From a virus, in the IMG/VR virus record IMGVR_UViG_3300025274_001348, positions 1 to 64,000 of that record: a stretch of DNA of 64,000 nucleotides. One strand, given 5' to 3'. The notes beneath the pieces were generated by a model that was not told the origin of the DNA, searched no databases, and was given only the letters and a program-made list of their open reading frames with translations. The first letter of the stretch is position 1; each line of letters opens with the position of its first letter. Shown here one piece after another: positions 773 through 13,175 of the stretch. A program made the translations under genes and the position numbers.

Positions 773-848
773 TTGACACAGGCAGGCGGTTAAGGTAGAA
801 CCAGCAGCCTTGTGCGCCTTCGTAGTATCAGGCGTACTAGGCTGCTTG
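773..848 (+). repeat. module-boundary element copy 0: TTGACA-17-TAGAAC then hairpin AGCAGCCT.GTGCGCCT/AGGCGTAC.AGGCTGCT
   Basis: GGTAGAAC at 794 followed by a long stem-loop; divergent member of the repeat family. Confidence 0.55.
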
Positions 849-876
849 AGGACAACAGGACGAGAGAAGGGCTACA

Positions 877-945
877 ATGACCATCATCACCATCATCACC
901 ATCGCGCTGGCCGGGCTGCTGGTTCTCGACTTGGTCGATGGCTAG
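877..945 (+). CDS. hydrophobic micropeptide (MTIITIITIALAGLLVLDLVDG)
   Basis: Hand translation; purine-rich leader upstream. Confidence 0.45.
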   Translation: MTIITIITIALAGLLVLDLVDG

Positions 946-948
946 GGC

Positions 949-977
949 TTGACAGCCAGCGAGTCAGCGGGTACAAT
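949..977 (+). promoter_or_regulatory. class B promoter TTGACA-17-TACAAT
   Basis: Consensus match. Confidence 0.75.
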
Positions 978-984
978 ACAGACA

Positions 985-1048
985 TACGGGTGACAAGCTC
1001 CCCAAGTTCCGGGGCCGACCCAACACCACTAGCCTTGAAAGAGCGAAC
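985..1048 (+). promoter_or_regulatory. structured 5' leader, copy 1
   Basis: GGGT/ACCC, CCCC/GGGG and GAAA-loop stems; paralogous to 3050-3112. Confidence 0.55.
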
Positions 1049-1465
1049 ATGATCTTCGATGAAACGCGCGACAACCTGACCGACACCGAGGCCCAGAGCA
1101 TCGAAGCCGATGCCCACGCGGACACCCGCGAAGCCGAGGACACGCGGTGCAGCGAGCGCCGGGTGGCTGACGCTTGGTGGGCGGGCTTCAACCGCGCGAA
1201 GGCGAAGACCGCCGAGCAGGATGCCGCCGAGCAGGATGCCGCCATCGGTGCGGATTGGGCCGCTGCCGGTTACCCCGGCGACGGTGTCGATGACACCGGG
1301 GATGATCCCACCGATCCCGAGCATGACGAGGTCGGTGACGCGGACACCGACTACGACATCGAATTCGATGACGAGGACGACGGTCAGCCCACCGAGTACG
1401 AAGAGTGGCAGGACTACTTCGGTGGGGATGAGTACTACGACCACAGCGAGAACGGGTGTTGGTGA
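1049..1465 (+). CDS. hyper-acidic protein, paralog 1 (C-terminal DDGQPTEYEEWQDY motif); possible DNA mimic
   Basis: 138 aa, very D/E-rich; homologous to 3113-3430 and 5871-6098. Confidence 0.8.
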   Translation: MIFDETRDNLTDTEAQSIEADAHADTREAEDTRCSERRVADAWWAGFNRAKAKTAEQDAAEQDAAIGADWAAAGYPGDGVDDTGDDPTDPEHDEVGDADTDYDIEFDDEDDGQPTEYEEWQDYFGGDEYYDHSENGCW

Positions 1466-1545
1466 TGAAACAGGCAGCGGTCCAAACGCTGAAGATGATC
1501 GGCTGGGGCTTGGCAGTATTCGCCATGCTAGCCGCCACGCTCTAG
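1465..1545 (+). CDS. single-TM micropeptide (MKQAAVQTLKMIGWGLAVFAMLAATL)
   Basis: TGATG coupling to upstream gene; hydrophobic. Confidence 0.55.
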   Translation: MKQAAVQTLKMIGWGLAVFAMLAATL

Positions 1546-1555
1546 GCGGGGTTCG

Positions 1556-1722
1556 GGTAAAACGCGCCGCGTGGGTGTCTCCCGCCATCCACGCCGCTCC
1601 GCGTCAAGGGTAATCTGGGATTTAGCGTGATTTTTTAGTAATTGAGACTCGATCTCAATAGGCTAATCTGAGGAGATAGGGTGGACACTGGGCTTGATTT
1701 ATGCCGATAAGTATAGTATAAT
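1556..1722 (+). repeat. module-boundary element copy 1: GGTAAAAC-hairpin-GTCAAGGGTAAT, operator 1641-1659, class A promoter 1694-1722
   Basis: 9-bp stem GCGTGGGTG/CATCCACGC; ATTGAGA-N5-TCTCAAT; TTGATT-17-TATAAT with GCCGATAA. Confidence 0.85.
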
Positions 1723-1758
1723 GGGAACATACAACAGAGAACAAACGAAAGAGCAAAC

Positions 1759-1989
1759 ATGAGTTGGACAACTGCAACCAGAATTAGAAACGAAAAAATT
1801 CAACGGGCCGTCGAGTTGGCACAACGGGCCAATATCACCGACGTTGACAAGGCGAGAGCAATCAAGGACAAGTACGTTGCACTGCTCAACGAAGACCCCA
1901 CCAGCGAAAAGAATCAACGACTTTACAACTGGTCACAACAGGTTCTTATCGGGGCGAGAACGTTGGCCGGTGAGAGAATCTGGATTTGA
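1759..1989 (+). CDS. hypothetical phage protein
   Basis: 76 aa ORF directly after the promoter. Confidence 0.7.
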   Translation: MSWTTATRIRNEKIQRAVELAQRANITDVDKARAIKDKYVALLNEDPTSEKNQRLYNWSQQVLIGARTLAGERIWI

Positions 1990-1992
1990 AGC

Positions 1993-2021
1993 TTGACAAG
2001 CCGGGTTCATTCTGGTACAAT
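1993..2021 (+). promoter_or_regulatory. class B promoter TTGACA-17-TACAAT
   Basis: Consensus; followed by an ORF-free structured region. Confidence 0.75.
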
Positions 2022-2027
2022 GGACAC

Positions 2028-2577
2028 AACGAACAACGGGGCTACTGGAACTCACAGGCAACGCTGATAAGACGCCGTGAGATAGGGTTAAGAGCCACTG
2101 CAAGCCTAACACACAAAACATACTCTGGAGAAGTTTCGACAACTGATAACCCCTTGCGAGGGTAAGCCCACTAAGAACCGGGGCGCCACTAAAGTTCTCG
2201 GTGACGTAGGGGAAGCTGGTTAGCTTCTAATCGCAAGTGCAGTTGTTACAGGGCGCAACTCCCTGTCAGAGTGCCACACAATCCTGAGTAGTACCCCACG
2301 CTCGGTTGGCCGTTACAGCGGCAAGGGACTAGTAAGCCTAGTAGAAGCCTGTAAGCTTTGAACGGATGCTAGTACCATGGGGATCTTACAACGGACAGGA
2401 ATGGATTACGGGGTTGACCGACAAACTGGTCGCAGGGTTCAATTACCTGCCCTGTCCTTTGACACCACCCTAACAGAAGGGGACCGCGAATGAAGCTATA
2501 TTGAAACAGCACTAGCAAGATGGGCGTCTATCGTCCACAAGCCCCTGTCGGAAAACCAGCGACGGGGGCTTTTTTTA
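2028..2577 (+). ncRNA. candidate ~550-nt structured RNA with tRNA-like domains (2121-2276, 2393-2458)
   Basis: No credible ORF between promoter and terminator; many stems separated by A/C-rich linkers. Confidence 0.65.
2541..2577 (+). terminator. intrinsic terminator
   Basis: GCCCCTGTCG/CGACGGGGGC followed by a T-tract. Confidence 0.8.
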
Positions 2578-2612
2578 TTCCGAGGAAATTCTGGAATTAT
2601 TCAAGATTGGGG

Positions 2613-2801
2613 TTGACAGAGGGGCCGAGATTAGGTAAAACTCAGCGGCGAGGTGGTCTTCGCCCATCCGAGCCGCTTGGCGTCAAGGGTAATATGGCAG
2701 TTTGTGTGATTTTTTTCTAATTGAGACTGAGTGTCAATAAGGAAAAGTGAGGAGATAGGGTGGCGATTGGGCTTGTATTTTGTCGATAATAGTAGTATAA
2801 T
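2613..2801 (+). repeat. module-boundary element copy 2 (TTGACA-17-TAAAAC, hairpin, operator 2720-2738, class A promoter 2773-2801)
   Basis: GGTAAAAC at 2634; AGCGGC..GGTGG/CCATC..GCCGCT; GTCAAGGGTAAT. Confidence 0.85.
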
Positions 2802-2808
2802 GGGAGAC

Positions 2809-3009
2809 ATGAAAACGCAACACACATACAAGCCGATGGAATTCGCTCAGTACTTCGATACGCATGGCGTGCATCACGCCGTGACTGTCCTGTCCGTCTT
2901 GCATGACGGGAAGGCTGTGAAGATCCACTACTACACGGACATCGAGTTGACCGACGTGGTGGTCAAGTGGGTTTTGGCGAAATCCCTGATTCCCATGATT
3001 GGGGCTTGA
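2809..3009 (+). CDS. hypothetical protein, probably leaderless
   Basis: ATG 7 nt after TATAAT; stop inside the next -35 box. Confidence 0.7.
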   Translation: MKTQHTYKPMEFAQYFDTHGVHHAVTVLSVLHDGKAVKIHYYTDIELTDVVVKWVLAKSLIPMIGA

Positions 3010-3034
3010 CAACCAACGCCACGCTTGGTACAAT
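3006..3034 (+). promoter_or_regulatory. class B promoter
   Basis: TTGACA-17-TACAAT. Confidence 0.75.
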
Positions 3035-3049
3035 ACGAGCATACAAACA

Positions 3050-3112
3050 CACGGGTGCAAAGCTCCTCAAGATCCGAGGCCGACCCAACCACTAGCCTTG
3101 AAAGGGCAAAAC
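3050..3112 (+). promoter_or_regulatory. structured 5' leader, copy 2
   Basis: CCTC/GAGG replaces CCCC/GGGG of copy 1 (compensatory change). Confidence 0.55.
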
Positions 3113-3430
3113 ATGACGTTTGACGAATCGCGCGACAACCTGCTGGACATCGAAGCGGCTTCCATCGAGGCCGACGCCCACGCGGAAACCCGCGAAGCCG
3201 ACGACAATCGGCCCATGGAACGCCGGGTAGCCGACGCTTGGTGGGCAACCCGCAACGCGGAAGCCGACGCTCCCGATGACGTGGACCATGACGCGGATGA
3301 GAACCACCCGATGGGCGGGGACGACGACGAACCCGAGGAGGATGACGGCCAGCCCAGCGAGTACGAGGAGTGGCAGGATTACATGGGCGGGGATGAGTAC
3401 TACGACCACGGCGAAAACGGGGAGTGGTAG
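3113..3430 (+). CDS. hyper-acidic protein, paralog 2
   Basis: MTFDESRDNL…DDGQPSEYEEWQDYMGGDEYYDH. Confidence 0.8.
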   Translation: MTFDESRDNLLDIEAASIEADAHAETREADDNRPMERRVADAWWATRNAEADAPDDVDHDADENHPMGGDDDEPEEDDGQPSEYEEWQDYMGGDEYYDHGENGEW

Positions 3431-3432
3431 GC

Positions 3433-3504
3433 ATGGGATGGGCTTTCACGATCTTCTGGTTCCTGATGTTCGGCTTGATCTTTCTGGACATCCACGACGG
3501 ATAA
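3433..3504 (+). CDS. single-TM micropeptide (MGWAFTIFWFLMFGLIFLDIHDG)
   Basis: Hand translation; GGAG upstream. Confidence 0.55.
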   Translation: MGWAFTIFWFLMFGLIFLDIHDG

Positions 3505-3517
3505 CACGAACCCTTTC

Positions 3518-3564
3518 CACTCCGTCGCGGTGAGTGATGACACCGTGGCGGGGTGTTTTTTTTT
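3518..3564 (+). terminator. intrinsic terminator
   Basis: CACTCCGTCGCGGTG/CACCGTGGCGGGGTG plus T9. Confidence 0.8.
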
Positions 3565-3584
3565 GAGAAAATTCCAGATTGGGC

Positions 3585-3772
3585 TTGACATGGGGGCCGG
3601 GATCAGGTAAAACGCGCCGCGCGGATGTCCTGCCCCATCCGCGCTGCTCGGAGTCAAGGGTAATTTGGGATTCAGCGTGATTTTTTAGGAATTGAGATCC
3701 AGTCTCAATAGTGGAATCTGAGTAGATAAGGTGGCGGTTGGGGTTGATTTATGCCGATAAATATAGTATAAT
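3585..3772 (+). repeat. module-boundary element copy 3 (TTGACA-17-TAAAAC, hairpin, operator 3691-3709, class A promoter 3744-3772)
   Basis: Perfect stem GCGCGGATG/CATCCGCGC covarying with copy 1. Confidence 0.85.
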
Positions 3773-3779
3773 GGGAGAC

Positions 3780-4022
3780 ATGAAAGACACAACAGCGAAA
3801 CAAGTTTGGACAGGCCGCGACAAAGACGGCAACGCTTTCCGGCTCAACGCCCCGGTGAACGCTGGGAGTGAATGGGTGTTCAGCGAATCGGCTAGGCTGC
3901 TGGCCTTGCTGGGTTGGGCGAAGGTTTCCGTCGTAATGAAGGGCGACCACATTGTCCTGCTCAACTCGGCGGTCAAGGCAGATCCCGTTTCGCCACCGTT
4001 CCTGAATCCCAACAAGGCTTGA
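3780..4022 (+). CDS. hypothetical protein, probably leaderless
   Basis: ATG 7 nt after TATAAT; stop in next -35. Confidence 0.7.
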   Translation: MKDTTAKQVWTGRDKDGNAFRLNAPVNAGSEWVFSESARLLALLGWAKVSVVMKGDHIVLLNSAVKADPVSPPFLNPNKA

Positions 4023-4047
4023 CAACCCTACCACGATCTGGTACAAT
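4019..4047 (+). promoter_or_regulatory. class B promoter
   Basis: TTGACA-17-TACAAT. Confidence 0.75.
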
Positions 4048-4053
4048 ACACAC

Positions 4054-4290
4054 ATGCAACACAAACCCAAGACCGGCGATCTGTTTGACAGGGGCAATCA
4101 ACACGACTTCGAGTTGGTCCCGTTGAAAGCTCACAGGAAATGGCAGTACATCACGATTCTGCACGGGATTGACGGCAGACCGGCGGATTGTGGTGTGAGA
4201 GTGGACTACCCGCGTTTGACGGGTGGCGGCTTTGGTTTCAATGGTGAGATCAAGCAACGACGGAAGATCTGGAAAGTGAAAGGGACGTAG
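4054..4290 (+). CDS. hypothetical protein, probably leaderless
   Basis: ATG 6 nt after TACAAT. Confidence 0.7.
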   Translation: MQHKPKTGDLFDRGNQHDFELVPLKAHRKWQYITILHGIDGRPADCGVRVDYPRLTGGGFGFNGEIKQRRKIWKVKGT

Positions 4291-4292
4291 AG

Positions 4293-4490
4293 ATGGAAGA
4301 ACTGTGGAACGCACAAACGGCAGCGGGGGTCAAGTTTCAATTCTGGATGCCGGAAGGCTCCGACCATGATGCTGCGCTGGACGTAGCGTTGGGACTCAAG
4401 GACAAGATCGATCCCGACTTCAATGACTGGTTGGTCATGGTGACGATGGCGGCGTTGACCGGACACAACGGCTCCCCGATTCTGTCTTGA
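4293..4490 (+). CDS. hypothetical protein
   Basis: 65 aa; stop inside the next -35 (4487-4515 promoter). Confidence 0.65.
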   Translation: MEELWNAQTAAGVKFQFWMPEGSDHDAALDVALGLKDKIDPDFNDWLVMVTMAALTGHNGSPILS

Positions 4491-4545
4491 CAATCGGCGG
4501 CTGGTCTGGTACAATATACGAAACGGTAGCGCGAGAGGGCAAGGA

Positions 4546-4737
4546 ATGGAATTGGTTTACAAGCTGGATGGGGTCGAAGTCTGGTACTGTCACGAGTCTG
4601 ACGACTTCGAGGTGTGGGCGATGGTGTCGAATGGCCCTGACGACTTCCAGTGGGACGTGGTGTTGACAACCGACGACAGCGAATGGGCTGTGATCGTCGC
4701 GGATGAAGTTTGGCTCAAGATGGAGACGATGGTATGA
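4546..4737 (+). CDS. acidic hypothetical protein
   Basis: 63 aa, D/E/W-rich, after a class B promoter. Confidence 0.65.
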   Translation: MELVYKLDGVEVWYCHESDDFEVWAMVSNGPDDFQWDVVLTTDDSEWAVIVADEVWLKMETMV

Positions 4738-5000
4738 TGACGCGAAAACACTTCAAGATGCTGGCCGCTTCTATTGCGAAGCTGACCCTGTTCGACAAGG
4801 ACGCGGGCTACGACATGGCTTGCGAGGTGGCCGACGCTTGTGCGAAGGACAACCCGCGCTTTGACCGGGTCAAGTTCTTCGAGGCTTGCGGGTTTCCCGG
4901 CGGGATGCACTTGCGTCCATTGCCGGTGCAATACGTGAACTGCGTGGTCGATGCTCAGGGTTTCGTTCCCGCGCGGACTAACAAGAAAGGGGAAACATGA
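4734..5000 (+). CDS. hypothetical phage protein (MTRKHFK…DNPRFDRVKF type)
   Basis: ATGA overlap; motif typical of small phage early proteins. Confidence 0.7.
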   Translation: MMTRKHFKMLAASIAKLTLFDKDAGYDMACEVADACAKDNPRFDRVKFFEACGFPGGMHLRPLPVQYVNCVVDAQGFVPARTNKKGET

Positions 5001-5056
5001 TCTGGGAAACCGTGATCCAAGTGGCCGTGATCATCCTAGCGATCATCGCTCACTAA
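4997..5056 (+). CDS. single-TM micropeptide (MIWETVIQVAVIILAIIAH)
   Basis: ATGA-coupled; AAGGGG RBS. Confidence 0.5.
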   Translation: MIWETVIQVAVIILAIIAH

Positions 5057-5080
5057 AAAGATGGGCGTCTATCGCCTATA

Positions 5081-5112
5081 AACCTCGCCCCTATATGCGG
5101 CGGGGTTTTTTT
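5081..5112 (+). terminator. intrinsic terminator
   Basis: AACCTCGCC/GGCGGGGTT plus T-tract. Confidence 0.7.
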
Positions 5113-5167
5113 ATAACTATATATAACGGCGGCGGCGGGATGTATAAGGGTATATAGTGACGGTTTA

Positions 5168-5333
5168 GGTAAAACGCGCCGGGCAGTGGTCTTGCGCCAA
5201 CTGCCCTGCTTCGCGTCAAGGGTAATCTGGGATTTGGTGTGGTTTTTTAGAAATTGAGATCATGTCTCAATAGGGGGAATTGCTGAGATATGGTGGAGAC
5301 TGGGCTTGCATAATGCCGATAATATGTTATAAT
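5168..5333 (+). repeat. module-boundary element copy 4 (hairpin, operator 5253-5271, class A promoter 5306-5333)
   Basis: GGTAAAACGCGCC-GGGCAGT/ACTGCCC-…GTCAAGGGTAATCTGGGATTT. Confidence 0.85.
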
Positions 5334-5369
5334 GGGGGACAGACAACAACAAGTGAAAGGGTTTGAAAG

Positions 5370-5666
5370 ATGACGAAGACAGTTCCAATGGTTTCCAGTG
5401 ATTGCGTGATCGCCGTGATGGACAAGGCGATGAGCGTGGACATGATGCAGTTCGGTGCGGAGACGCTTGAGGAGATGATGAAGGATCAGCCTCAACTGCT
5501 CAAGGTGATTTCCTTCCTGCTCACCGAACTCATCGCCAAGGGCAAGGACGAGGAAACCGCCGCGATTGATGCCGTCCAGACGATGGCCGTGATCGGCGTG
5601 GTGTTCAAGGCAATCAAGACCCAGATCGAAGCCGACGAAATGGAAATGTCGGAAGACTGGTCTTGA
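5370..5666 (+). CDS. hypothetical protein, paralog of 8163-8480
   Basis: Shared IAVM.KA, QP.L and FK.IK.QIEA.EM motifs. Confidence 0.75.
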   Translation: MTKTVPMVSSDCVIAVMDKAMSVDMMQFGAETLEEMMKDQPQLLKVISFLLTELIAKGKDEETAAIDAVQTMAVIGVVFKAIKTQIEADEMEMSEDWS

Positions 5667-5697
5667 CAATCAACCCCCCGTCTGGTACAATTGACAC

Positions 5698-5874
5698 ATG
5701 AAACACATCGAACTCAGCATCCCCTGTCGGACAACGGCCAGCTTTCGCCAGCCGCAACAGCAGCCCGTCAAGGACACCCCGGAGAAACGGGAAGCCCGGA
5801 TTCGCCTGTACGCTTGGCGAGCCGAAAACAACCTCGACATTTTCACTGGATTTCCGAAAAGGACAACCCCATGA
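5698..5874 (+). CDS. 58-aa hypothetical protein, probably leaderless (MKHIELSIPC…NNLDIFTGFPKRTTP)
   Basis: Below ORF-track cutoff; ATG 6 nt after TACAAT of promoter 5663-5691; ATGA-coupled to next gene. Confidence 0.6.
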   Translation: MKHIELSIPCRTTASFRQPQQQPVKDTPEKREARIRLYAWRAENNLDIFTGFPKRTTP

Positions 5875-6098
5875 CGTTTGAAGAAGCCTTCGAGAACGAC
5901 CCCCAAGCCCGCGCCGAATTCGAGGAGTACCTCGACGAGATGGCCGAGGACCACGTCCACGTTGCGGTGAGTCTCCACGACAGGGACGAGGAGTGGGATG
6001 CGGAGAACGACGGCCAGCCCACGGAGTACGAGGAGTGGCAAGACTTCATGGGTGGCGACGACTGGGATCAAGGCCAGTACGACGATCTTGGTTACTAG
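5871..6098 (+). CDS. hyper-acidic protein, paralog 3
   Basis: NDGQPTEYEEWQDFMGGDDWD motif. Confidence 0.75.
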   Translation: MTFEEAFENDPQARAEFEEYLDEMAEDHVHVAVSLHDRDEEWDAENDGQPTEYEEWQDFMGGDDWDQGQYDDLGY

Positions 6099-6100
6099 AA

Positions 6101-6179
6101 TACGGGTCGAGGTGGTGTTGGTTGTCTCCGTTCTAGAGCGGACAGTACGCCAACGTAATGCAAACCACACACCCCCGTA
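6101..6179 (+). ncRNA. rod-like hairpin upstream of tRNA-Asp
   Basis: TACGGG/CCCGTA, GTGGT/ACCAC, TGTTGG/CCAACG, TCCGTTC/GAGCGGA nested. Confidence 0.35.
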
Positions 6180-6184
6180 GATCC

Positions 6185-6257
6185 GGGGACGTAACTCAAC
6201 AGGCAGAGTGCCGGATTGTCTATCCGGTGGTTGCGGGTTCAAATCCCGCCGTCCTCG
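6185..6257 (+). tRNA. tRNA-Asp(GTC)
   Basis: GGGGACG/CGTCCTC acceptor, CCGGA-TTGTCTA-TCCGG anticodon arm, GCGGG-TTCAAAT-CCCGC T arm; no encoded CCA. Confidence 0.92.
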
Positions 6258-6347
6258 CTTTATATAGCCGCTGCTTCTCGCCCTGTTTTATATACTTATA
6301 TAACTCATCGGGGCCGGGGGTGGCGGTTGTTTTATAGACCCGGATCA

Positions 6348-6494
6348 GGTGAAACGCGACGGCGCTGTGTCGCTCGACAACCGCGCCGCTGGGCGGCTTG
6401 GGGACTAGCAAGTGAAAATGAGTCAGGAAAACTTTGGGATTCTCGGAAATAGGATCAAGATTGGGGTTGACTTTGGTCGATAATATACTATACT
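6348..6494 (+). repeat. module-boundary element copy 5 (GGTGAAAC-hairpin; class A promoter 6467-6494)
   Basis: GGCGC..TGTCG/CGACA..GCGCC; TTGACT-16-TATACT with GTCGATAA. Confidence 0.75.
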
Positions 6495-6523
6495 GGAGGA
6501 GTAAGTCAGTGAGAGGGCAAGAC

Positions 6524-6730
6524 ATGAAACGCAAGACGAAGAAGATGAATCGCGGCACAATCGAGTTCGGTGCTAACTGCGTCACGATCACGATTGAGAG
6601 CGAGCCATGGAAGGTTGGCAGGATTCATTCCGTCAACAAGGCTGGCGCTGGCAAGCACAAGGACAGGCGAACCAAGCGGAACCGCACACGAGCAAACCAG
6701 AACCACAACGCAATCAGGGAATCCATGTAA
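6524..6730 (+). CDS. basic hypothetical protein
   Basis: K/R-rich 68 aa; GAGAGGG RBS. Confidence 0.7.
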   Translation: MKRKTKKMNRGTIEFGANCVTITIESEPWKVGRIHSVNKAGAGKHKDRRTKRNRTRANQNHNAIRESM

Positions 6731-6731
6731 A

Positions 6732-6830
6732 ATGGTAACTGACCTCTTGACTTGGACGAACATCTGTGGTATAATTGTGGCTGTGGGATTCATTTCGGTT
6801 TTGGCAGACAAACTTGGTTGGTGGGAATAG
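6732..6830 (+). CDS. single-TM micropeptide (MVTDLLTWTNICGIIVAVGFISVLADKLGWWE)
   Basis: Hydrophobic; contains an internal TTGACT-17-TATAAT promoter (6747-6775). Confidence 0.5.
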   Translation: MVTDLLTWTNICGIIVAVGFISVLADKLGWWE

Positions 6831-6834
6831 GGAG

Positions 6835-7317
6835 ATGACGATGAGCGACAAGGCTATGCGGATTACTGACAACAAGGGATTCCAACTGGATCTGCCTAAC
6901 GGCGTGACGGTTTCCGTCCAGTGGGGTCCGGGCAACTACTGCGACAGCGACGTGTCGAATGCCAAGTGGGATGCCCCGAAAAAGGCGATTGACGGTGACG
7001 AGCATTGGGGTTCCAACACCGCCGAGTGTGCCGCCTACGTTACTGGTAGCAATCTGTCGTGGGTTGCCGTGCCGGGATACACTGGGCCTCACGGTTGCGA
7101 CGACGAGGACGTGTTCTACGATGACGTGGTTGGACACCTTGACGTTCAGGGCGTTCTGGACTTCATCAATCTGGCATCGCAGGTTGCTGCGGAACCGAAC
7201 CCGAACAGCATCGGAAACAAGATGCTGGGCTGGCTCGAAAAGGAAGATCCTGTGCCTAGCGATCAGCATCCGTTCCCACTCCCCGGACAGAAGGAGCTTG
7301 ATTTCGATGACGCTTGA
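6835..7317 (+). CDS. hypothetical phage protein (GF.L..PNG.TVSVQWG.GNYC motif)
   Basis: Motif recognised from phage hypothetical proteins. Confidence 0.75.
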   Translation: MTMSDKAMRITDNKGFQLDLPNGVTVSVQWGPGNYCDSDVSNAKWDAPKKAIDGDEHWGSNTAECAAYVTGSNLSWVAVPGYTGPHGCDDEDVFYDDVVGHLDVQGVLDFINLASQVAAEPNPNSIGNKMLGWLEKEDPVPSDQHPFPLPGQKELDFDDA

Positions 7318-7516
7318 CCAATTGTGGAGAATCGCTCTGGAGCATTTTCCAGCGTGTCACATCACGGAAGACATGGACGGGGAAATCGTGATCGCCACCG
7401 GGCTGATAATGGAAGGTCCACCGTTGGGGATGGACGGCTTGACGGTTGCGAACATTCCGGCGAAACAACAACAACACGTTCAACTCAGGGAGATGACTGG
7501 TGAAGACCTTACGTAA
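7307..7516 (+). CDS. hypothetical protein
   Basis: AAGGAG RBS; overlaps upstream stop. Confidence 0.6.
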   Translation: MTLDQLWRIALEHFPACHITEDMDGEIVIATGLIMEGPPLGMDGLTVANIPAKQQQHVQLREMTGEDLT

Positions 7517-7655
7517 AGGCGAGAAGTTCAAGCGGCTGAAGAATTCCACCAAGACCGACTTGGGCGTTATCAAGAAACTGGTCAAGGACGGGTGGACGTT
7601 CTGCGACAAGACAACGTGGAGGGCGCTCAGAGATGGCGATGCTGCGAAAGATTAA
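7500..7655 (+). CDS. 51-aa basic hypothetical protein (MKTLRKGEKF…GWTFCDKTTW…)
   Basis: GTG start with GGAG RBS; hand translation. Confidence 0.55.
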   Translation: MKTLRKGEKFKRLKNSTKTDLGVIKKLVKDGWTFCDKTTWRALRDGDAAKD

Positions 7656-7722
7656 TCGGGACACTTTGGTGACGTTTGCGTTCATCGGCTTCTGGACCTT
7701 TATCATCGTGGCAACACGGTGA
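7639..7722 (+). CDS. single-TM micropeptide (MLRKINRDTLVTFAFIGFWTFIIVATR)
   Basis: Hand translation; ends 8 nt before element copy 6. Confidence 0.5.
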   Translation: MLRKINRDTLVTFAFIGFWTFIIVATR

Positions 7723-7729
7723 GGGTTCA

Positions 7730-7885
7730 GGTGAAACGCTGCGGCGGGTGTGTCGCTGCACATCCCGCCAGCTTCGGCGCAAGGGTAATCTGGGATTTTG
7801 AGCGATTTTTTCGAAAGTTTTTTCTGGCAATCTGACGGGATTTACTGGAGTGCGACCTTGACTAATGCCGATAATATACTATAAT
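7730..7885 (+). repeat. module-boundary element copy 6 (class A promoter 7858-7885)
   Basis: GGTGAAAC; GGCGGG.TGTG/CACA.CCCGCC; CAAGGGTAATCTGGGATTT. Confidence 0.8.
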
Positions 7886-7913
7886 GGGGGGAACAATACA
7901 CGAGGGTGAGAGC

Positions 7914-8099
7914 ATGACAGAGAAAGAGTTGGACAGGCTGCTGGCAGAAGACGGATACGGGGTGCGTGAGGTTTGCGGTGAACGGGCAGGCGAAACCGTT
8001 TGGGAGTTGTGGGAGTTGATGGATTCTAGCACTGGCTGGATCGTCGGCTACTTCGACACCGCCGAAGACGTTTGCGATTTTGTCGGGATTTATGCTTGA
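7914..8099 (+). CDS. acidic hypothetical protein
   Basis: 61 aa; stop in next -35 (8096-8123 promoter). Confidence 0.65.
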   Translation: MTEKELDRLLAEDGYGVREVCGERAGETVWELWELMDSSTGWIVGYFDTAEDVCDFVGIYA

Positions 8100-8162
8100 C
8101 AATGGTTGATAGTCTGCTACAATGGATAGCAGACAAGGACACAAGAACGAGAGGGTTTGAAA

Positions 8163-8480
8163 ATGGCGACGATGAACGGGATGCCGCGAGTGACGAAGGA
8201 CGCAACGATTGCCGTGATGCACAAGGCAACGACAATCGACATGGCTGAATTCGGGGTTCAAGTCCTCGATGAACTGGACGAGGAGCAACCGGCCTTGTGT
8301 CAGATGCTCACTCACATGATCATGGACCTCGCCTGTCCCGACGAGATGCCCGAGGAATTGAAGCAGTCGAATGCTCTGATCATGACCGTCATCGCCGGAT
8401 GTCTGTTCAAGTCGATCAAGGCACAGATTGAAGCGGAAGAAATGGCAAGTTTGTTTAGTGAAGAGGAGACTGTTGAATGA
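8163..8480 (+). CDS. hypothetical protein, paralog of 5370-5666
   Basis: Visible alignment. Confidence 0.75.
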   Translation: MATMNGMPRVTKDATIAVMHKATTIDMAEFGVQVLDELDEEQPALCQMLTHMIMDLACPDEMPEELKQSNALIMTVIAGCLFKSIKAQIEAEEMASLFSEEETVE

Positions 8481-8653
8481 CACACGTTGGAATTGGTGAT
8501 CGAGTGCTGTTTGACTACCACGGCAAGGCTCGGAGTGGTAGCATCGAGAAGATCGGGAATGGTCCCGCTGGCGTCTACGTCATCATCGCACACGGCGATG
8601 GCTCGCACAAGACGTTCTCACAACCCAAAATCAGTAACCTGCGAAAGGTGTAA
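8477..8653 (+). CDS. 58-aa SH3/WYL-like small protein, paralog of 39733-39954
   Basis: FDYHGKARSG…GNGPAG…KTFSQPKISNL; hand translation. Confidence 0.55.
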   Translation: MTHVGIGDRVLFDYHGKARSGSIEKIGNGPAGVYVIIAHGDGSHKTFSQPKISNLRKV

Positions 8654-8655
8654 AC

Positions 8656-8832
8656 ATGAAGACGACGGTTGCGACATTCGAGTTGGAAAAGGAAACCAAG
8701 AACACGATTCGCTACAGCGAAACGCCGGATGAAGGCGTGGCCCCAGTGGTCAACACGATCTACATCCAGAAGCACGTTCTCGGCAAGACCGCTCCACAGA
8801 ACATCAAGGTGACAATGGAGGAATCTAAATAA
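8656..8832 (+). CDS. 58-aa hypothetical protein (MKTTVATFELEKETKNTIRY…IYIQK…)
   Basis: AAGGTG RBS; hand translation. Confidence 0.65.
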   Translation: MKTTVATFELEKETKNTIRYSETPDEGVAPVVNTIYIQKHVLGKTAPQNIKVTMEESK

Positions 8833-9147
8833 GGCGGGGATTGCAACCCCGTCTAGGGTGGTGACTGAACAATCCCCGGTTATGGGGGGATAAGGTGCGC
8901 GCTGCTGAGTTCCGATAGCCGAATGGTCGAGGAGTTCAGGTAGACGGCAGTCATACAGAACTACCATATCTGTGAGCTTGCGGGCAAAAGTGAATCCCGC
9001 CCACCCGTTATACATACAGCGCTGGCTAAGAACCGGGGCGCCACTATAATACTCGGTGACGCCAGCGCTATCAAACAGTGACTTGGAGTTTCGCCCTTTC
9101 CTCAGTCGCTGGCCCCCGTTCCGGTTCGCCGGTGCGGGGGTTTTTTT
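8832..9147 (+). ncRNA. candidate structured RNA: cloverleaf-like domain 8856-9007, conserved motif hairpin 9018-9069, terminator 9112-9147
   Basis: ORF-free; multiple perfect stems; shares a 36-nt motif with 2171-2206. Confidence 0.65.
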
Positions 9148-9161
9148 ATTGGCGGGGATCG

Positions 9162-9306
9162 GGTGAAACGCGGCGGCGGGTTGTCGCTGGGCAACAACGC
9201 CGCTCGGCGTCAAGAGGAAAGTGGAGGTTTAGGCGATTTTGTGGAAAGTTTTTCTAGGGAATATATTCAAGTTGGGGGTTGACAATAGCCGATAATACTC
9301 TATAAT
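9162..9306 (+). repeat. module-boundary element copy 7 (class A promoter 9279-9306)
   Basis: GGTGAAAC; GCGGCG..GTTGTC/GGCAAC..CGCCGC; GTCAAG; TTGACA-16-TATAAT with GCCGATAA. Confidence 0.8.
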
Positions 9307-9336
9307 GGGGGAGTAACACACACACGAGGGCAAGCA

Positions 9337-10119
9337 ATGTTGAAGTGGTCGAAAGCAAACGCGAAAACGGAACGGTTGAACGAGAGTTGTTGGGCAATTG
9401 CCAAGCACCTTGACGATGGGCGGAAGGTCTACAGTCTCGATCTGTTGTCGGGCTACTCGTGTCCGTTTGCAAAGGCGTGTCTCTCGAAAGCGGTTGTCGG
9501 TGAAAATGGCAAGCGGACAATCAAGGACGGTCCCCACAATGAGTTTCGTTGTTTCTCGGCATCGCAAGAGGTGCAGTACACCAACGTGTACAATCTCCGC
9601 AAACACAATTACGACACCTTGAAGGAAAACCAAGACGACTGGCCGTTGATGTATCAGGAACTGTGGAAGTCGATTCCCCCGGATGCCGGGATTGTTCGGA
9701 TTCATGTTGCAGGGGATTTCTTCAACGAGAATTATCTCCGGGCTTGGATTGAACTGGCTCAAACAACTCCCGACGTGTTGTTCTACGCCTACACCAAAAG
9801 CCTGAAGTATTGGGATGCTCTCAAGAGTGAAGTCCCCGAGAATCTGGTGCTGACGGCGTCGTATGGTGGGCGTGACGACTGGATGATTGATCATGGTGGA
9901 TTCCGATTCGCCAAGGTGGTATTCTCAGAAGCGGAAGCGGAAGAACTCGACTTGATTATCGACCACGATGATTCCCACGCTGCTAATCCAACGTGGCGGG
10001 ATGAGAGTTTCGCACTGTTGATTCACGGGACACAACCGGCGGGATCGGAAGCGGCGACGGCTCTGCGAGAATTGAAGGGTAAAGGTTCTTACTCTAGAAA
10101 ACAAAAGGTGACGGGATGA
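9337..10119 (+). CDS. Gp88-like phage protein (Cys-containing, radical-SAM-related fold)
   Basis: L.SGYSCP.A..C, VRIHVAGDFF and FYAYTKS motifs. Confidence 0.7.
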   Translation: MLKWSKANAKTERLNESCWAIAKHLDDGRKVYSLDLLSGYSCPFAKACLSKAVVGENGKRTIKDGPHNEFRCFSASQEVQYTNVYNLRKHNYDTLKENQDDWPLMYQELWKSIPPDAGIVRIHVAGDFFNENYLRAWIELAQTTPDVLFYAYTKSLKYWDALKSEVPENLVLTASYGGRDDWMIDHGGFRFAKVVFSEAEAEELDLIIDHDDSHAANPTWRDESFALLIHGTQPAGSEAATALRELKGKGSYSRKQKVTG

Positions 10120-10325
10120 TTGAGAGAACGACGATTGTGGCGGTGGATTGCATTCAGTGCAAGGAAACCCAACATATCACAACAAAAACCGAGGATCTCG
10201 ATTCTTGGGAGAATGGCGAACTGATTCAGAACGCCATGCCGTACTTGACGGCTGATGAGCGGGAAGTCCTCATTAGCGGGATTTGCGGGACTTGTTTCGA
10301 CAATATGTTCGCGGGTGACGAATGA
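10116..10325 (+). CDS. small Zn-binding protein (CxxC…CxxC)
   Basis: CIQC, IQNAMPYL, LISGICGTC. Confidence 0.7.
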   Translation: MIERTTIVAVDCIQCKETQHITTKTEDLDSWENGELIQNAMPYLTADEREVLISGICGTCFDNMFAGDE

Positions 10326-10765
10326 TCGACTATACTAAACGGGTTTACGTCTATTGGAATCTCCACCGGAAACTGTGGAGTGTGAGACAATCCGGGCTTA
10401 TCGTAGACCACGCCCACCTGTTGTCGTTGCGGGATTGTAAGTTCCTCGTCGGCAAGGCTGGACAGGCTAGGGTTCGACGCGAGGGAAAGAAAAACGTCCA
10501 CGCTGGCGTGAGCGGCTACCTGCTGGAAGATCCGTGTAGCGTTGACCGAATGGTGTGGAATGGGTTCTACGATAAACAAGTGTGGGTCATGTACAACCCC
10601 TATAAGCACGACACGTTTGTAGAGCGGACTGGCGTGTGTGACGACCAGTATCCGATCCCAGTATATAGAGCCGACTTCGTTGCAATGTACAAAGACAATG
10701 ACCGGGACGCCCCGACAGTAATGGCTCTAGAGCCGGAAGGTGAGCAATGCGTGACATCTTGCTAG
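10322..10765 (+). CDS. conserved phage hypothetical protein
   Basis: VYWNLH…WSVR…KKNVHA…YNPYK motifs. Confidence 0.75.
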   Translation: MIDYTKRVYVYWNLHRKLWSVRQSGLIVDHAHLLSLRDCKFLVGKAGQARVRREGKKNVHAGVSGYLLEDPCSVDRMVWNGFYDKQVWVMYNPYKHDTFVERTGVCDDQYPIPVYRADFVAMYKDNDRDAPTVMALEPEGEQCVTSC

Positions 10766-10845
10766 TGGCAGCGGCGTGGGCTTATGTAATTCTTTACGCC
10801 TTCGAATTGTTTATGCGGTACTGCCCATTGACAGACATTGGGTAA
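10747..10845 (+). CDS. single-TM micropeptide (MRDILLVAAAWAYVILYAFELFMRYCPLTDIG)
   Basis: Its TAA stop lies within GGTAAGAC of element copy 8. Confidence 0.5.
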   Translation: MRDILLVAAAWAYVILYAFELFMRYCPLTDIG

Positions 10846-11013
10846 GACAGGGCGTCGTTGTGGCTCACGCAACCCACGCCGCTGGAGGCGATCTAGGTGT
10901 GCGAGCAAGTAAAAGTCAAGTACAAAATCGGAATCTGGGCGATTTTAAAAAAGATTCTTTTTTGACCAATCGGGGCTAAAGATGCTTGACATATTGTGTC
11001 GATAAACTATAAT
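10841..11013 (+). repeat. module-boundary element copy 8 (class A promoter 10986-11013)
   Basis: GGTAAGAC; GGCGT..GTTGTG/CGCAAC..ACGCC; TTGACA-16-TATAAT with GTCGATAA. Confidence 0.65.
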
Positions 11014-11083
11014 GGAGACATACAGTTGAGTTGGTGAGTGTTTCACCGACAATGAGTTTTGACCGCAGACGGAGACAAGAGAC

Positions 11084-11410
11084 ATGAGTGAGAAGAAGCA
11101 AAGAGCAGAGGCGATTTCGGCCACGGCATTCGTGGAAGCATACGTTAAGGTTCACCAGAACGGCGGCACGATTGCCGACGTTGCCGACGAGTTGGGCCGG
11201 TCTGTTGAGCAGACCCGGAGCAAGAAGAATGCTCTGACTCCCGCATTCGCTGAACGCGGGATCAAGCTGCCGAAGTTGGTTCGGCAAGGTCGCAACGGCA
11301 CGTCCTACGACGAGGCGGCTCAGGTCGCTGGTGACTACCTCGCAAGTCTGATGGCGGGGAGTGACGAGGCCGAGTCCGACGAGTCGGAGTCGGAATTCGC
11401 TTCGGAGTAA
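11084..11410 (+). CDS. putative HTH DNA-binding protein with acidic tail
   Basis: TIADVADELGRS HTH-like segment; GGAG RBS; terminator at 11426-11462. Confidence 0.65.
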   Translation: MSEKKQRAEAISATAFVEAYVKVHQNGGTIADVADELGRSVEQTRSKKNALTPAFAERGIKLPKLVRQGRNGTSYDEAAQVAGDYLASLMAGSDEAESDESESEFASE

Positions 11411-11528
11411 TCATCCGTCGCGGAGGTGGGGTCGCCCTTTATTAGGGCGGCCCTGCTTTTTTCTTGACTTGTCCTGCTACTTATGTTACTATGTAGAAGG
11501 ACAGAAAACTAACTTTTGGAGTGATGAG

Positions 11529-12785
11529 ATGAATGAAAAAATCGAAGCGTATGACGGAGCGAATGAAGAAGGTCAGTGGGTGTTCGACTCACAGGGGGTT
11601 GCCTCTGACGAAGGGTTCGGTCACGTCTCGAAGGACTGGTATCCCAAGACCATCAGCTATGATGAAGGCATGGACCAACTGGAATCGGAGCGAGGTCACC
11701 GGCAGGACTTTCTTGTCCCGATTTCCGATCTGGATTTTGGCATCGAGGACGTGAAGGGGAAACCCCGATTCGTGGTCGTTGTCGAGGACCAGACCTTTGT
11801 TCCTAACAACCATGCTCTCCAACAGATGACAGCAAAGTTGTGCGAGGGCAAGGGAACGGGCTTCACTCGCTGGTTGACCGAGGATCAGGTCAACGCCAAA
11901 GAGGAGTCTCGCTACAAGCGTGACCGGCGGGATGCCGAAGTGATTGATGCCATTATCAGTAATGGCTTCCGTCGCATCCTCGAAGCTAAACCTGATACCA
12001 GTTACAAGATTCGTACCTACGATGATGGTACGATGCGAGCCTTCCTCAGTGAGAAATACGCCGAGGTGGACAATCGCTGGTACTTGGAGCAGATCGAGGA
12101 TATTATCCCGAATGGCCGATTGAGCCACTGGCGGGGTAACGCCGACACCATTTTCGGCAACGTCCTGATTCCCGATACCATCCGTGAGGAAGAAGATTCC
12201 GATTACGGCGGGATGATCTCGATTGGTAACTGCGAGATCGGCAAGAGGAATGTCCTGTCGATGCCAAGCCTGTTCCGTGCAATCTGCATGAACGGTTGCA
12301 TCTGGGGACAAACCAAGGGTACTGAGATTCGTGTTCGCCATATCGGTGATATCGACCTCGAAGATCTTTCCAAGCGGATTCGGAATAACATCGAGACGCA
12401 GATTCCTCTGCTTCCCGCTGGTATCGAGAGACTGCTGGGTGTTCGCCTGATGGAGAACGACGGCGTTCCCATGAAGTCGATCATCGCTGGTGTTGCCGAC
12501 ATGGAGAAGTTGCAGAAGCGTGAAGCGACTGCCGTTCTCGAAGCATGGGTGATGTTTGAATCCAAGACTCCCGGTGAGAACCGGAATCTGTTTGGGGTTG
12601 TGAACAGCGTGACCCGTGCCGGTCAATTCCTTGGGAATGAGAACTGGGTGAAGTTCGATCAGCTTGGTGGAAGGCTGGTCAACTACACGGACAATCAGTG
12701 GGATCGTCTTTGCAACCGCGCAGAGGATTACGACGACACTGATTACAACCGTATCTTCACCAACAAGGCGGTGTTGGCCGCATAA
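11529..12785 (+). CDS. DUF932-family phage/plasmid protein
   Basis: RAFLSEKY..VDN, ISIGNCEIG, FRAICMNG, RVRH.G motifs; promoter TTGACT-17-TACTAT at 11464-11492. Confidence 0.75.
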   Translation: MNEKIEAYDGANEEGQWVFDSQGVASDEGFGHVSKDWYPKTISYDEGMDQLESERGHRQDFLVPISDLDFGIEDVKGKPRFVVVVEDQTFVPNNHALQQMTAKLCEGKGTGFTRWLTEDQVNAKEESRYKRDRRDAEVIDAIISNGFRRILEAKPDTSYKIRTYDDGTMRAFLSEKYAEVDNRWYLEQIEDIIPNGRLSHWRGNADTIFGNVLIPDTIREEEDSDYGGMISIGNCEIGKRNVLSMPSLFRAICMNGCIWGQTKGTEIRVRHIGDIDLEDLSKRIRNNIETQIPLLPAGIERLLGVRLMENDGVPMKSIIAGVADMEKLQKREATAVLEAWVMFESKTPGENRNLFGVVNSVTRAGQFLGNENWVKFDQLGGRLVNYTDNQWDRLCNRAEDYDDTDYNRIFTNKAVLAA

Positions 12786-12795
12786 GGAGGTCAAC

Positions 12796-12885
12796 ATGGA
12801 ACGGTATGTCGGATACGGTATGTTCGCCTTTGGAGTGCTACTGTTTTGGATAGGTTTCAAGAATAGGTGGCGAGAAGAAGACTAG
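12796..12885 (+). CDS. single-TM micropeptide (MERYVGYGMFAFGVLLFWIGFKNRWREED)
   Basis: Perfect AAGGAGG RBS. Confidence 0.7.
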   Translation: MERYVGYGMFAFGVLLFWIGFKNRWREED

Positions 12886-12908
12886 AACCTACTAACTAGC
12901 AACGCGCG

Positions 12909-12943
12909 ACCCGCTCCGGTGCAAGCCGGGGCGGGTTTTTTTT
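12909..12943 (+). terminator. intrinsic terminator
   Basis: ACCCGCTCCGG-TGCAAG-CCGGGGCGGGT plus T-tract. Confidence 0.85.
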
Positions 12944-12977
12944 GTGAAAAAATCGGGGATTGGACTTGACAAGATCG

Positions 12978-13030
12978 GGTAAAACGGGAGGGCAACGGTG
13001 TAGCACGCTAACCGGGCCGCTGCGCCCAAG
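12978..13030 (+). repeat. module-boundary element copy 9 (last; no downstream class A promoter)
   Basis: GATCGGGTAAAAC; CGGT.TAGC/GCTA.ACCG stem; CAAG. Confidence 0.6.
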
Positions 13031-13175
13031 TAGTGAGATCAGGACTGCAACCGAGTAAAATTTTATGTATGCGTGTATAAAAAAAGACCCAACCCGAAAT
13101 GAATCGAGAAGGGCCTATAGTTTTAGGTAGGACGAGTCGGCGTGACTAACCACCCACCGACGTGACCGAGTAAAT

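Follow-up and report, generated by a model that had tools for sequence, protein, structure and literature searches.

The first 64,000 nucleotides (nt) of the viral record IMGVR_UViG_3300025274_001348 (hereafter, the window) are the start of an 84.5-kb contig (G000) of an uncultured marine phage, and open with a GC-rich early region in which consecutive gene modules end in the same element, namely, an unpaired tag of the form GGT-RRR-AC followed by a GC-rich stem-loop. All ten copies of this element in the window are located on the coding strand, within the first 13 kb, and their stems differ in sequence with the pairing kept. Under the interpretation that we favour, to which we assign a rough probability of 45%, the element is a punctuation hairpin that acts in RNA at module ends, in the manner of repetitive extragenic palindromic (REP) sequences, and that also supplies the homology for module shuffling resembling that of the promoter/stem-loop (PeSL) cassettes of T4-type phages.

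The tag is GGTAGAAC at position 794, GGTAAAAC at 1556, 2634, 3606, 5168 and 12978, GGTGAAAC at 6348, 7730 and 9162, and GGTAAGAC at 10841, i.e. at all ten sites where an initial annotation of the window had placed it. A gap of 1–3 nt separates the tag from a stem-loop of 32–47 nt, with stems of 9–17 pairs. The base of the stem is conserved (RAGCRGC paired with GCYGCT, the latter invariant on the 3′ side), as are the apex (TGTCTT..ACA in short stems or TTCRC..GTMTCA in long stems) and the tag together with a few bases preceding it, and the middle 5–8 pairs vary with compensating changes. The individual stem pairings quoted in the initial annotation are correct, and so is its observation that five copies (1556, 2634, 3606, 5168 and 7730) continue with CAAGGGTAAT. 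Four copies are included in a 182-nt repeat, and a 44-nt core is common to seven. The sequence GGTRAAAC occurs 12 times in the window vs. 4.81 expected (0 of 100 shuffles reached 12), and 8 of these 12 are plus-strand copies of the element. Across the 84.5 kb, the tag pattern has 24 matches, including the 10 copies, with about 21 expected, so that the tag is not enriched outside the GC-rich region.

Relatives of the phage were collected using two markers encoded in the window, a DUF932-like protein (11529–12785) and a GP88-family protein (9337–10119), for which 57 viral-contig loci and 67 metagenome loci were retrieved. The same tag and hairpin, with different stems, are present in G001 (a complete genome of 161 kb), L005 and L010, where the DUF932-like marker is, respectively, 86%, 61% and 54% identical to that of the window, as well as in the metagenome loci L108, L094, L085, L084 and L087. 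When the window copies were folded one at a time, only those at 794 (z = −4.66) and 9162 (z = −2.39) clearly outperformed shuffled sequences, with z values between −1.62 and +1.10 for the other eight. Because single-sequence folding is unimpressive in GC-rich DNA, the case for the hairpin rests on comparison and covariation. In a MAFFT alignment of 12 long-stem copies, 91.2% of the cells are paired and 9 of the 17 pairs have changed on both sides; the covariation score is 0.488, compared to 0.125 for shuffled alignments (0 of 500 reached the observed score) and at most 0.131 when the partners were slid. Thus, the claim of the initial annotation that the stem sequence changes while pairing is kept is borne out by double changes. 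RNAalifold, applied to a MAFFT alignment of 21 copies, reported no structure because the arms were out of register; the homogeneous 12-copy set resolved the structure.

The initial annotation had proposed a covariance-model search of related contigs as a check of the element. A model built from the 12-copy alignment was run over 1,188,768 bases, with matches recorded at E up to 1, and yielded 52 matches, 35 of which were taken as full-length copies, all on the gene strand (8 in the window, 16 in G001, 8 in L010 and 3 in L005). The remaining 17 comprise 13 weaker reflections of copies on the opposite strand, two truncated sense matches at decayed copies (window 13116–13150 and L062 12258–12292) and two chance-level hits (L054, E = 0.52, and L075, E = 0.94). 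At E up to 1, the model missed the window copies at 6348 and 7730, which were recognised by motif plus fold, and detected no copies in about 50 more distant loci or in a further related genome, G002. In the 35 sense copies, 467 of the 508 cells are paired, with four pair types at several pairs, and in the 8 window copies found by the model, 86.7% of the cells are paired and 9 pairs show double changes (0 of 1000 shuffles for both measures); both alignments were fitted to the model and the copies are related, so that these cells do not represent independent events.

No family of Rfam 15 covers any window copy, either at the gathering score or at E up to 1, and a published description of the element was not found in a non-exhaustive full-text literature search. 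One copy in G001 (L061 4140–4236, minus strand) is a weak match to the gyrA RNA (RF01740), at 25.5 bits vs. the cut-off of 45; it shares with that family the stem base and a CAC.AGAA..GGA tail, and there is no other RF01740 match in L061 1–7400, which contains 12 further copies, or in the window. In a search for long-range pairing partners, no 10-mer of the hairpin arms recurs nearby, except for paralogous copies and chance hits. An exact-pattern scan of the viral contigs with a CAAGGGTAAT-type motif returned only L002 and L003, AT-rich coding contigs that were discarded as chance matches.

The strand on which the structure is kept can be read from the G-U pairs. Over 33 copies, folding of the sense strand gives 23 such pairs, compared to 6 for the antisense strand, counts that include related copies and are not independent events. 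As judged from these pairs, the asymmetry favours RNA of the sense strand, or single-stranded DNA (ssDNA) of the top strand, over a duplex or cruciform role. This comparison bears on the possibility that the element is a topological or protein-binding site of double-stranded DNA between strongly transcribed units, as proposed for REP sequences and the bacterial interspersed mosaic elements (BIMEs), which bind gyrase and the integration host factor (IHF). GC-rich palindromes located between some 20 near-consensus promoters that all point one way would suit such a site; however, if the element worked as a duplex or cruciform, G-U pairs should not outnumber A-C pairs, and such a role accounts neither for the one fixed orientation nor for a conserved tag that is unpaired and present at only one side. 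We regard this possibility as quite improbable.

The position of the element within the modules is equally regular. Promoter-like sites number 36 vs. 10.6 expected, with about 20 near-consensus promoters, all in one direction, and the promoters of the region fall into two classes. Class I promoters (TTGACA, 17 nt, tgGTACAAT) are located inside modules, and class II promoters (TTGAC., GCCGATAA in the spacer, then TATAATGGGG) at module starts. A module consists of a class II promoter and small genes, often with a class I promoter leading to more genes or a non-coding RNA, and its end often contains a tiny hydrophobic open reading frame (ORF) and sometimes a terminator, before the tag and hairpin. 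The element thus delimits the modules, as the initial annotation had suggested, by sitting at their ends. A strong sigma-70 promoter follows 8 of the 10 window copies, in line with the earlier count of eight, matching 10–12 of 12 consensus positions or aligned with a homologue that does; 6 of the 8 were detected by the promoter scan, and those after 2634 and 5168 were recognised only through repeat families. The distance from the end of the hairpin to the class II spacer motif is 83–117 nt, the promoter begins 80–120 nt past the element, and the hairpin lies approximately 80–130 nt upstream of the −35 box.

The first copy (773–846; all coordinates on the plus strand) consists of TTGACA (773–778; 17 nt), the tag (794–801) and a long-stem hairpin (803–846; ΔG −29.2; 72.3 bits), and leads into a 22-codon ORF (877–945), not a class II promoter. 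The next four have a palindrome between the hairpin and the class II promoter. In the copy spanning 1556–1722 (25.8 bits), the tag (1556–1563) starts 10 nt past the stop of the ORF 1456–1545 and is followed by the hairpin (1566–1597), CAAGGGTAAT, a T-run, the palindrome (1641–1659) and the promoter (1694–1722). The copy at 2611–2801 (16.2 bits, E = 0.16) is located after a terminator (2541–2577) and includes TTGACA (2611–2616), tag (2634–2641), hairpin (2644–2677), palindrome (2720–2738) and promoter (about 2773–2801); the same arrangement recurs at 3586–3772 (23.0 bits), after a terminator at 3518–3565, with TTGACA at 3586–3591, tag at 3606–3613, hairpin at 3616–3647, palindrome at 3691–3709 and promoter at 3744–3772. 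The copy at 5168–5334 (17.8 bits) comes after a terminator near 5085–5112, with the tag at 5168–5175, the hairpin at 5178–5209, the palindrome at 5253–5271 and the promoter at about 5306–5334. The two copies missed by the model span 6348–6494, after the tRNA-Asp gene 6185–6258 (tag 6348–6355, hairpin 6360–6388, promoter 6467–6494), and 7730–7885, where the tag (7730–7737) lies 7 nt past the stop of the ORF 7633–7722 (hairpin 7738–7778, promoter 7858–7885). The copy at 9162–9306 starts 10 nt past the T-run of a terminator (9120–9150) and comprises the tag (9162–9169), the hairpin (9172–9204) and the promoter (9279–9306) that precedes the GP88-family gene. The copy at 10841–11013 (18.0 bits) has a tag (10841–10848) whose TAA is the stop of the ORF 10747–10845, a hairpin (10851–10880) and a promoter (10986–11013). 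The last and weakest copy (12978–13027; 13.7 bits, E = 0.78, z = +1.10) is located after a terminator (12908–12944) and has a tag (12978–12985) and an imperfect hairpin ending at about 13027; it stands at the switch from 52–56% to about 41% G+C, and the next class II-like promoter is at 13909–13937.

Many modules are closed, just before the element, by tiny ORFs encoding hydrophobic peptides (545–738, 877–945, 1456–1545, 3433–3504, 4997–5055, 7633–7722, 10747–10845 and 12797–12885). A regular use of the stop codon in the tag (TAA, TGA or TAG) by the upstream small ORF was considered and is not established: the stop is in frame in 9 of 12 cases by eye and in only 12 of 23 by automatic assignment, with some of the ORFs being spurious. 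The palindrome, ATTGAGA-N5-TCTCAAT, is operator-like, lies about 35–55 nt upstream of the −35 box of the four class II promoters concerned, and is found also in G001 and L010; the half-site of this palindrome is similar to GTCTCA, a sequence present in long-stem loops.

The stem is not followed by a U-tract in any of 33 copies (the 8 nt past the stem hold 0.85 T on average and 3 at most), which indicates, on the strength of these counts, that the element itself is not an intrinsic terminator. An antisense terminator was also discarded, given that no more than 4 T are present in the complement of the tag and that the G-U pairs favour the sense strand. Canonical terminators (T-run of at least 6) are located just upstream, within 80 nt, of 8 of the 33 copies. 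The context in relatives is more varied: in G001, one copy occupies a 5′ leader, about 55 nt past a consensus promoter and before the ribosome-binding site of the gene (L061 2990–2800, minus strand), and other copies are located between small ORFs with no intervening promoter; in L010, the Shine-Dalgarno sequence can begin 2–3 nt past the stem. L061 of G001 additionally contains, at about 7100–6000 (minus strand), an array of about 1.1 kb, non-coding, that opens the GC-rich region; its units of about 165 nt consist of a tag (degenerate in some), a perfect stem of 14–15 pairs, a T-run and the 15-bp palindrome GTAGCATAATGCTAC.

The tag could, alternatively, be a −10-like box for the host sigma-70 or a small phage sigma factor, with the hairpin forming the 5′ end of the transcript. 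Properly placed −35 boxes are indeed present, as TTGACA lies 15–17 nt before the TA of the tag, in only three window copies (794, 2634 and 3606, the same three singled out by the initial annotation) and in several copies of the relatives; no other promoter is visible for some of the genes that a copy immediately precedes, e.g. at L010 6093; and the phages encode two or three small proteins with sigma-70 region 2 (161–186 amino acids; G000 81171–81686 and 50194–50679; G001 83759–83962, 8299–8475 and 114882–115040). One of those of G001 adjoins the start of the GC-rich region. However, most copies lack any −35 box, and the distance of TTGACA from the tag, where this hexamer occurs, ranges from 3 to 17 nt; in L010 and at 12978, it is only 3–8 nt, a spacing that no sigma-70 promoter allows. 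The sigma-70 −10 box has A at the second place, which the TGAAAC variants lack. The pairs located 2–5 nt past the tag are kept and co-vary (one of them is GC in 14 copies, CG in 7, TA in 5 and AT in 5), and therefore, the RNA must include the base of the stem, i.e. the folded strand begins before any start site set by the tag, 7 nt downstream. Together with the lack of tag enrichment outside the GC-rich region and the hairpin travelling with the upstream module rather than with downstream genes (see below), these observations make a promoter improbable; that the element is more than a −10 box, as the initial annotation had argued, is evident from the co-varying structure that reaches the basal pairs next to the tag. 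A promoter for an extracytoplasmic function (ECF) sigma factor, with the tag as −35 and the loop GTC as −10, was dropped because the spacing, by reading, is 13–16 nt in short-stem copies and about 23 nt in long-stem copies, whereas ECF promoters need a fixed spacing near 16–17. Hairpin promoters of the N4 type are served by a phage-encoded, T7-like virion RNA polymerase; a search of the phage for T7-type RNA polymerase (PF00940) gave no match, but PF00940 matched no control genome either. A beta-prime-like gene was searched for in the phage and not found.

A further possibility is an RNA signal that alters RNA polymerase, either a nut-like antitermination site or a factor-dependent stop, read by a phage or host factor at the terminators between modules. 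The lambda nut site (boxA plus the boxB hairpin) and the RNase III sites of T7 early genes are, respectively, a motif plus hairpin and hairpins in early transcripts, and the succession of a linear tag and a hairpin with a conserved apex recalls boxA-boxB. The many intrinsic terminators of the region, with 8 of 33 copies within 80 nt past a T-run, the bias to the sense strand, and the presence of one element type per genome, as would be expected of a matching genome-encoded factor, all fit such a signal. Yet the strongest window promoters are downstream of the element, so that their transcripts do not carry it; the tag, by reading, is unlike boxA; and no candidate factor emerged among the 20 early proteins compared to Pfam, 18 of which had no match and 2 uninformative matches. 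Overall, the element resembles nut and T7 RNase III sites in that a linear motif and hairpin would punctuate or regulate the expression of early phage genes, but there is no sequence likeness, and the copy number is far above that of nut; to our knowledge, stems of 9–17 pairs with a conserved apex are not an RNase III determinant. We view a signal to the polymerase as unlikely.

Comparison of module order, which the initial annotation had suggested as a further check, shows that the order has changed, with the breakpoints beside the element. The window contains tRNA-Asp, A, B and C, in this order, whereas G001 contains tRNA-Asp, B′, A and C, and the two genomes have orthologous hairpins downstream of the tRNA, of A and of B. 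Homology between the window and G001 breaks at 6390/6455, 7620–8414 and 9152/9270, either immediately past the stem or shortly ahead of the tag, and is restored from the following promoter onwards; at the 6348 copy, it stops directly after the hairpin, at 6390. At all three breakpoints, which come from a single genome pair, the hairpin stays with the upstream module and the break is located 20–60 nt past the hairpin. The promoter into which the copies lead, as noted in the initial annotation, does follow, but it is the 3′ end of the upstream module of which the hairpin is a part (3 of 3 cases). Upstream of the GP88 gene, sequences from 61 loci, clustered at 72% identity (shuffled sequences reach at most 65%), form 2 clusters (60 + 1) for the promoter and leader, between −90 and −1, 11 between −190 and −100, and 18 between −420 and −300; the module preceding that of GP88 differs among these loci. 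In another comparison, L108 and the window are distinguished by a block of about 3 kb that has one of its ends at a class II promoter plus leader. Contigs from an oligo-dT marine RNA library (run X1), 90–99% similar to the window, join distant promoters or elements (window 125/4054, 780/3593, 6471/7864, 12942/10840 and others); these joints may come from relatives with other module order or from assembly artefacts, and count as weak evidence. Another RNA run, X2, contained no relatives.

Such rearrangements raise the question of a DNA site, i.e. a tagged hairpin of the top strand, as ssDNA or in a cruciform, that is recognised by a recombinase or nuclease and moves modules in the manner of attC cassettes or REPINs (REP doublets forming hairpins) mobilised by REP-associated tyrosine transposases (RAYTs). 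Integron attC sites are structured and variable in sequence, stand at the 3′ end of cassettes of variable order and are recognised on one strand. The element shows comparable features: a hairpin at the 3′ end of each module, structure kept while sequence varies, one-strand bias, variable order, and breakpoints 20–60 nt past the hairpin; the contigs of the RNA library that join at elements or promoters would, weakly, fit as well. Structure conserved over sequence, with an unpaired tag at one end, is also seen in GTAG-tagged REPs (PMC3733652). Nonetheless, the searches for an enzyme were negative in G000, G001 (100% complete) and G002, for the Y1 transposase/RAYT family PF01797 (7 of 14 control genomes matched; a host-encoded enzyme is possible), for the tyrosine integrase family PF00589 (14 of 14 controls matched) and for serine recombinases or resolvases (control genomes matched). 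Therefore, neither site-specific recombination nor ssDNA recognition can be assigned an enzyme. Furthermore, by reading, the sequence past the hairpin contains no complement of the tag, which leaves no core-site pair of the attC type; unlike attC cassettes, the modules come with promoters of their own; the junctions scatter over tens of nt with no fixed point; and the phage has a UvsX-like recombinase for general recombination. A dedicated DNA site appears unlikely, marginally more so than a signal to the polymerase. The recombination role that the initial annotation proposed is upheld as to the breakpoints, which lie beside the element, and not as to an enzyme, given that no tyrosine, serine or Y1/HUH recombinase was found in the contig of the window, G001 or G002.

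The same places are occupied by a different hairpin in most relatives. The tagged element (type 1) does not extend beyond the GC-rich region, either in the window or in G001 (L061 and L062), and its tag is absent from G002 and from 54 of the 58 metagenome loci with enough sequence upstream of the GP88 gene. The tag-less relatives have, before class II promoters, another GC-rich hairpin (type 2), whose outer stem co-varies by eye, with ..CGTAACC or ..CCTAACC on the 3′ side and often an AU-rich terminator following; in G002 (L058), it is found at 730–800, 2400–2470, 3240–3310, 4200–4270, 5715–5790, 7080–7150 and 7825–7900. Among the 58 metagenome loci, a T-run of at least 5 is present between −140 and −45 in 44, a class II promoter in 56 and a strong local hairpin in 47, and the T-run belongs, by eye, to an AU-rich stem that makes a terminator. 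From their sequences, CAAGGGTAAT and the T-run after the five window copies look like a decayed version of this AU-rich terminator. On the sense strand, the type 2 tag occurs 16 times in G002 (11 in the first 9.4 kb), once in G000 and 3 times in G001. No genome combines the two types, yet an orthologous module, a manA-like RNA plus terminator, ends in type 1 in the window but in type 2 in G002. The list of candidate partner genes, i.e. ORFs present in G000 and G001 and absent from G002, is too long to use because G002 is only 79% complete.

The manA-like stretch (8832–9010) is a sub-threshold match to the manA RNA (RF01745; 47 bits vs. 55.2, E = 1.4 × 10−9), located after the gene 8656–8832 and before the terminator 9120–9150; it is conserved in G001 (L004, about 2400–2640), and a similar RNA-like stretch with a terminator was noticed by eye in G002 (L058, about 3900–4200). 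Another stretch, with no Rfam match, starts at a consensus promoter (1993–2021) and extends for about 550 nt, with no credible ORF, to the terminator 2541–2577; a 36-nt stretch of it (2171–2206) recurs at 9026–9061 with 92% identity.

The single type per genome could also come from concerted evolution of a selfish or neutral palindromic repeat that has no function of its own and is homogenised by recombination among copies, and a different hairpin at the same place in close relatives would be compatible with this. Homogenisation, however, should equalise the middles of the stems, which instead differ and compensate, and the tag, base and apex are fixed across phages in which the DUF932-like marker is only 54–86% identical. 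Of the explanations considered here, this one seems to us the hardest to credit.

According to the punctuation reading that we favour, the element would be transcribed as the tail or the intercistronic spacer of early messages, and its RNA would adopt a stable hairpin, serving as neither terminator nor promoter. This hairpin would shield or separate message segments, as a block to 3′ exonucleases or as a processing site, and the conserved tag, stem base and apex could point to a specific protein partner. Because module ends share about 50 nt and the next modules share the same promoter, general recombination between copies would reshuffle modules, i.e. swap, delete and duplicate them, as proposed for PeSL cassettes. 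Several observations weigh against this reading. The folding energies of single copies are mostly no better than those of shuffled sequences, and the strand bias, including the G-U excess counted over related copies, fits top-strand ssDNA equally well. Five window copies (2634, 3606, 5168, 9162 and 12978) sit past a canonical terminator, where they would be reached only by read-through or from a weak TTGACA-17-TAAAAC promoter, which is an odd place for a stabiliser of 3′ ends. A plain exonuclease block needs no conserved tag or apex. Finally, the linkage of the hairpin to the upstream module was observed in one pair of genomes, and X1, the sole RNA run with relatives, consists of assembled contigs, which are silent on RNA ends, strand and transcription.

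A bolder reading, which we consider a long shot, takes the tag, stem base and apex as the address of a phage-encoded factor. A lineage-specific pair of factor and site would be suggested by the fact that types 1 and 2 never mix though the modules they close are orthologous. Such a pair would mark the 3′ end of each early cassette, either as a counterpart of attC and REPIN sites that exchanges cassettes between co-infecting phages or as a lineage-specific control of early messages.

Two known systems come close to the element. PeSL cassettes, described in the T4-type phages RB49 and phi1 (Arbiol et al. 2010, PMC2839356), are repeated intergenic cassettes that combine a strong sigma-70-like early promoter with a stable GC-rich stem-loop, which lies within, overlaps or is directly beside the promoter (five subclasses). 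They are located in plastic regions rich in small genes of unknown function, where recombination between copies reshuffles modules, and have been shown to have both terminator activity of the stem-loop and mini-circles (PMC2839356). To this extent, the comparison with PeSLs made in the initial annotation is apt (PMC2839356): the strong promoter, the stem-loop, the plastic region and the reshuffling of modules are shared. By contrast, the hairpin described here is 80–130 nt upstream of the −35 box of the promoter, rather than inside or adjoining the promoter; its apex and its unpaired tag are conserved, it lacks a U-tract, and it stays with the upstream module. The tagged REP palindromes of the GTAG and CGTC super-families (Di Nocera et al. 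2013, PMC3733652) are palindromes of 20–40 nt that carry, at one of their ends, a conserved motif left unpaired, and they are situated past coding regions, where they are plausibly transcribed; they form several sequence families with one architecture and reach high copy numbers on bacterial chromosomes, and a transposase is associated with the GTAG family (PMC3733652). The one-sided unpaired tag, the palindrome, the location past genes and the existence of families with one architecture are common to both. The differences are that the present element is found in a lytic phage, in 10 to about 19 copies within 13–15 kb, in a single orientation rather than in inverted pairs, with an 8-nt tag that contains GTAG in 1 of 10 window copies (794) and in most listed G001 copies, the others being GGTAA.. 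or GGTGA.., and with no RAYT gene found. The system is undescribed, as the initial annotation held, insofar as it is absent from Rfam 15 and from the literature searched, whereas its kind is known, given the resemblance to tagged REP palindromes and PeSLs. The element family is well supported and co-varying, and, from its sequence, appears to extend this REP-like or PeSL-like kind.

The phage is a large siphovirus. The tape measure protein is the largest ORF of G001 (2908 amino acids), in which ORFs of 2195 and 1238 amino acids had no PHROG family match. The gene set includes rIIA, a split DNA polymerase, a UvsX-like recombinase, a helicase and a primase, and the phage also carries metabolic genes, a transfer-messenger RNA (tmRNA) and tRNAs. 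Composition changes in a step, from 52–56% G+C in positions 1 to about 13,000 to about 41% in 13041–64000, and this switch is not an assembly artefact, because G001 (locus L004) and the metagenome locus L085 span the same junction. Relatives show the same switch, and the hairpin family has the same extent as the GC-rich part. Between the last hairpin and the next class II-like promoter (13909–13937), the AT-rich stretch 13040–13937 contains two minus-strand ORFs (13176–13523 and 13534–13704) and a decayed tag plus stem at about 13116–13150. The ends of the G001 contig (L004 560–828 and L061 200–1, minus strand) are diverged copies of the same approximately 250 nt, a promoter plus the start of a structured RNA, which suggests that the assembly break reflects strain variation inside the early region.

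In large phages, the early host-takeover regions change faster, and are less well understood, than any other part of the genome, and here the unit of change is directly readable as a promoter, small genes and a tagged hairpin. Metagenomes provide dozens of natural variants of this co-varying structure, which is absent from Rfam 15, along with a testable partner and a testable role in reshuffling. If a lineage-specific factor indeed reads the tag, it would offer a new handle on the control and exchange of early genes in lytic phages; otherwise, through this element, a group of uncultured marine siphoviruses still joins the genomes in which REP-like and PeSL-like punctuation is found.

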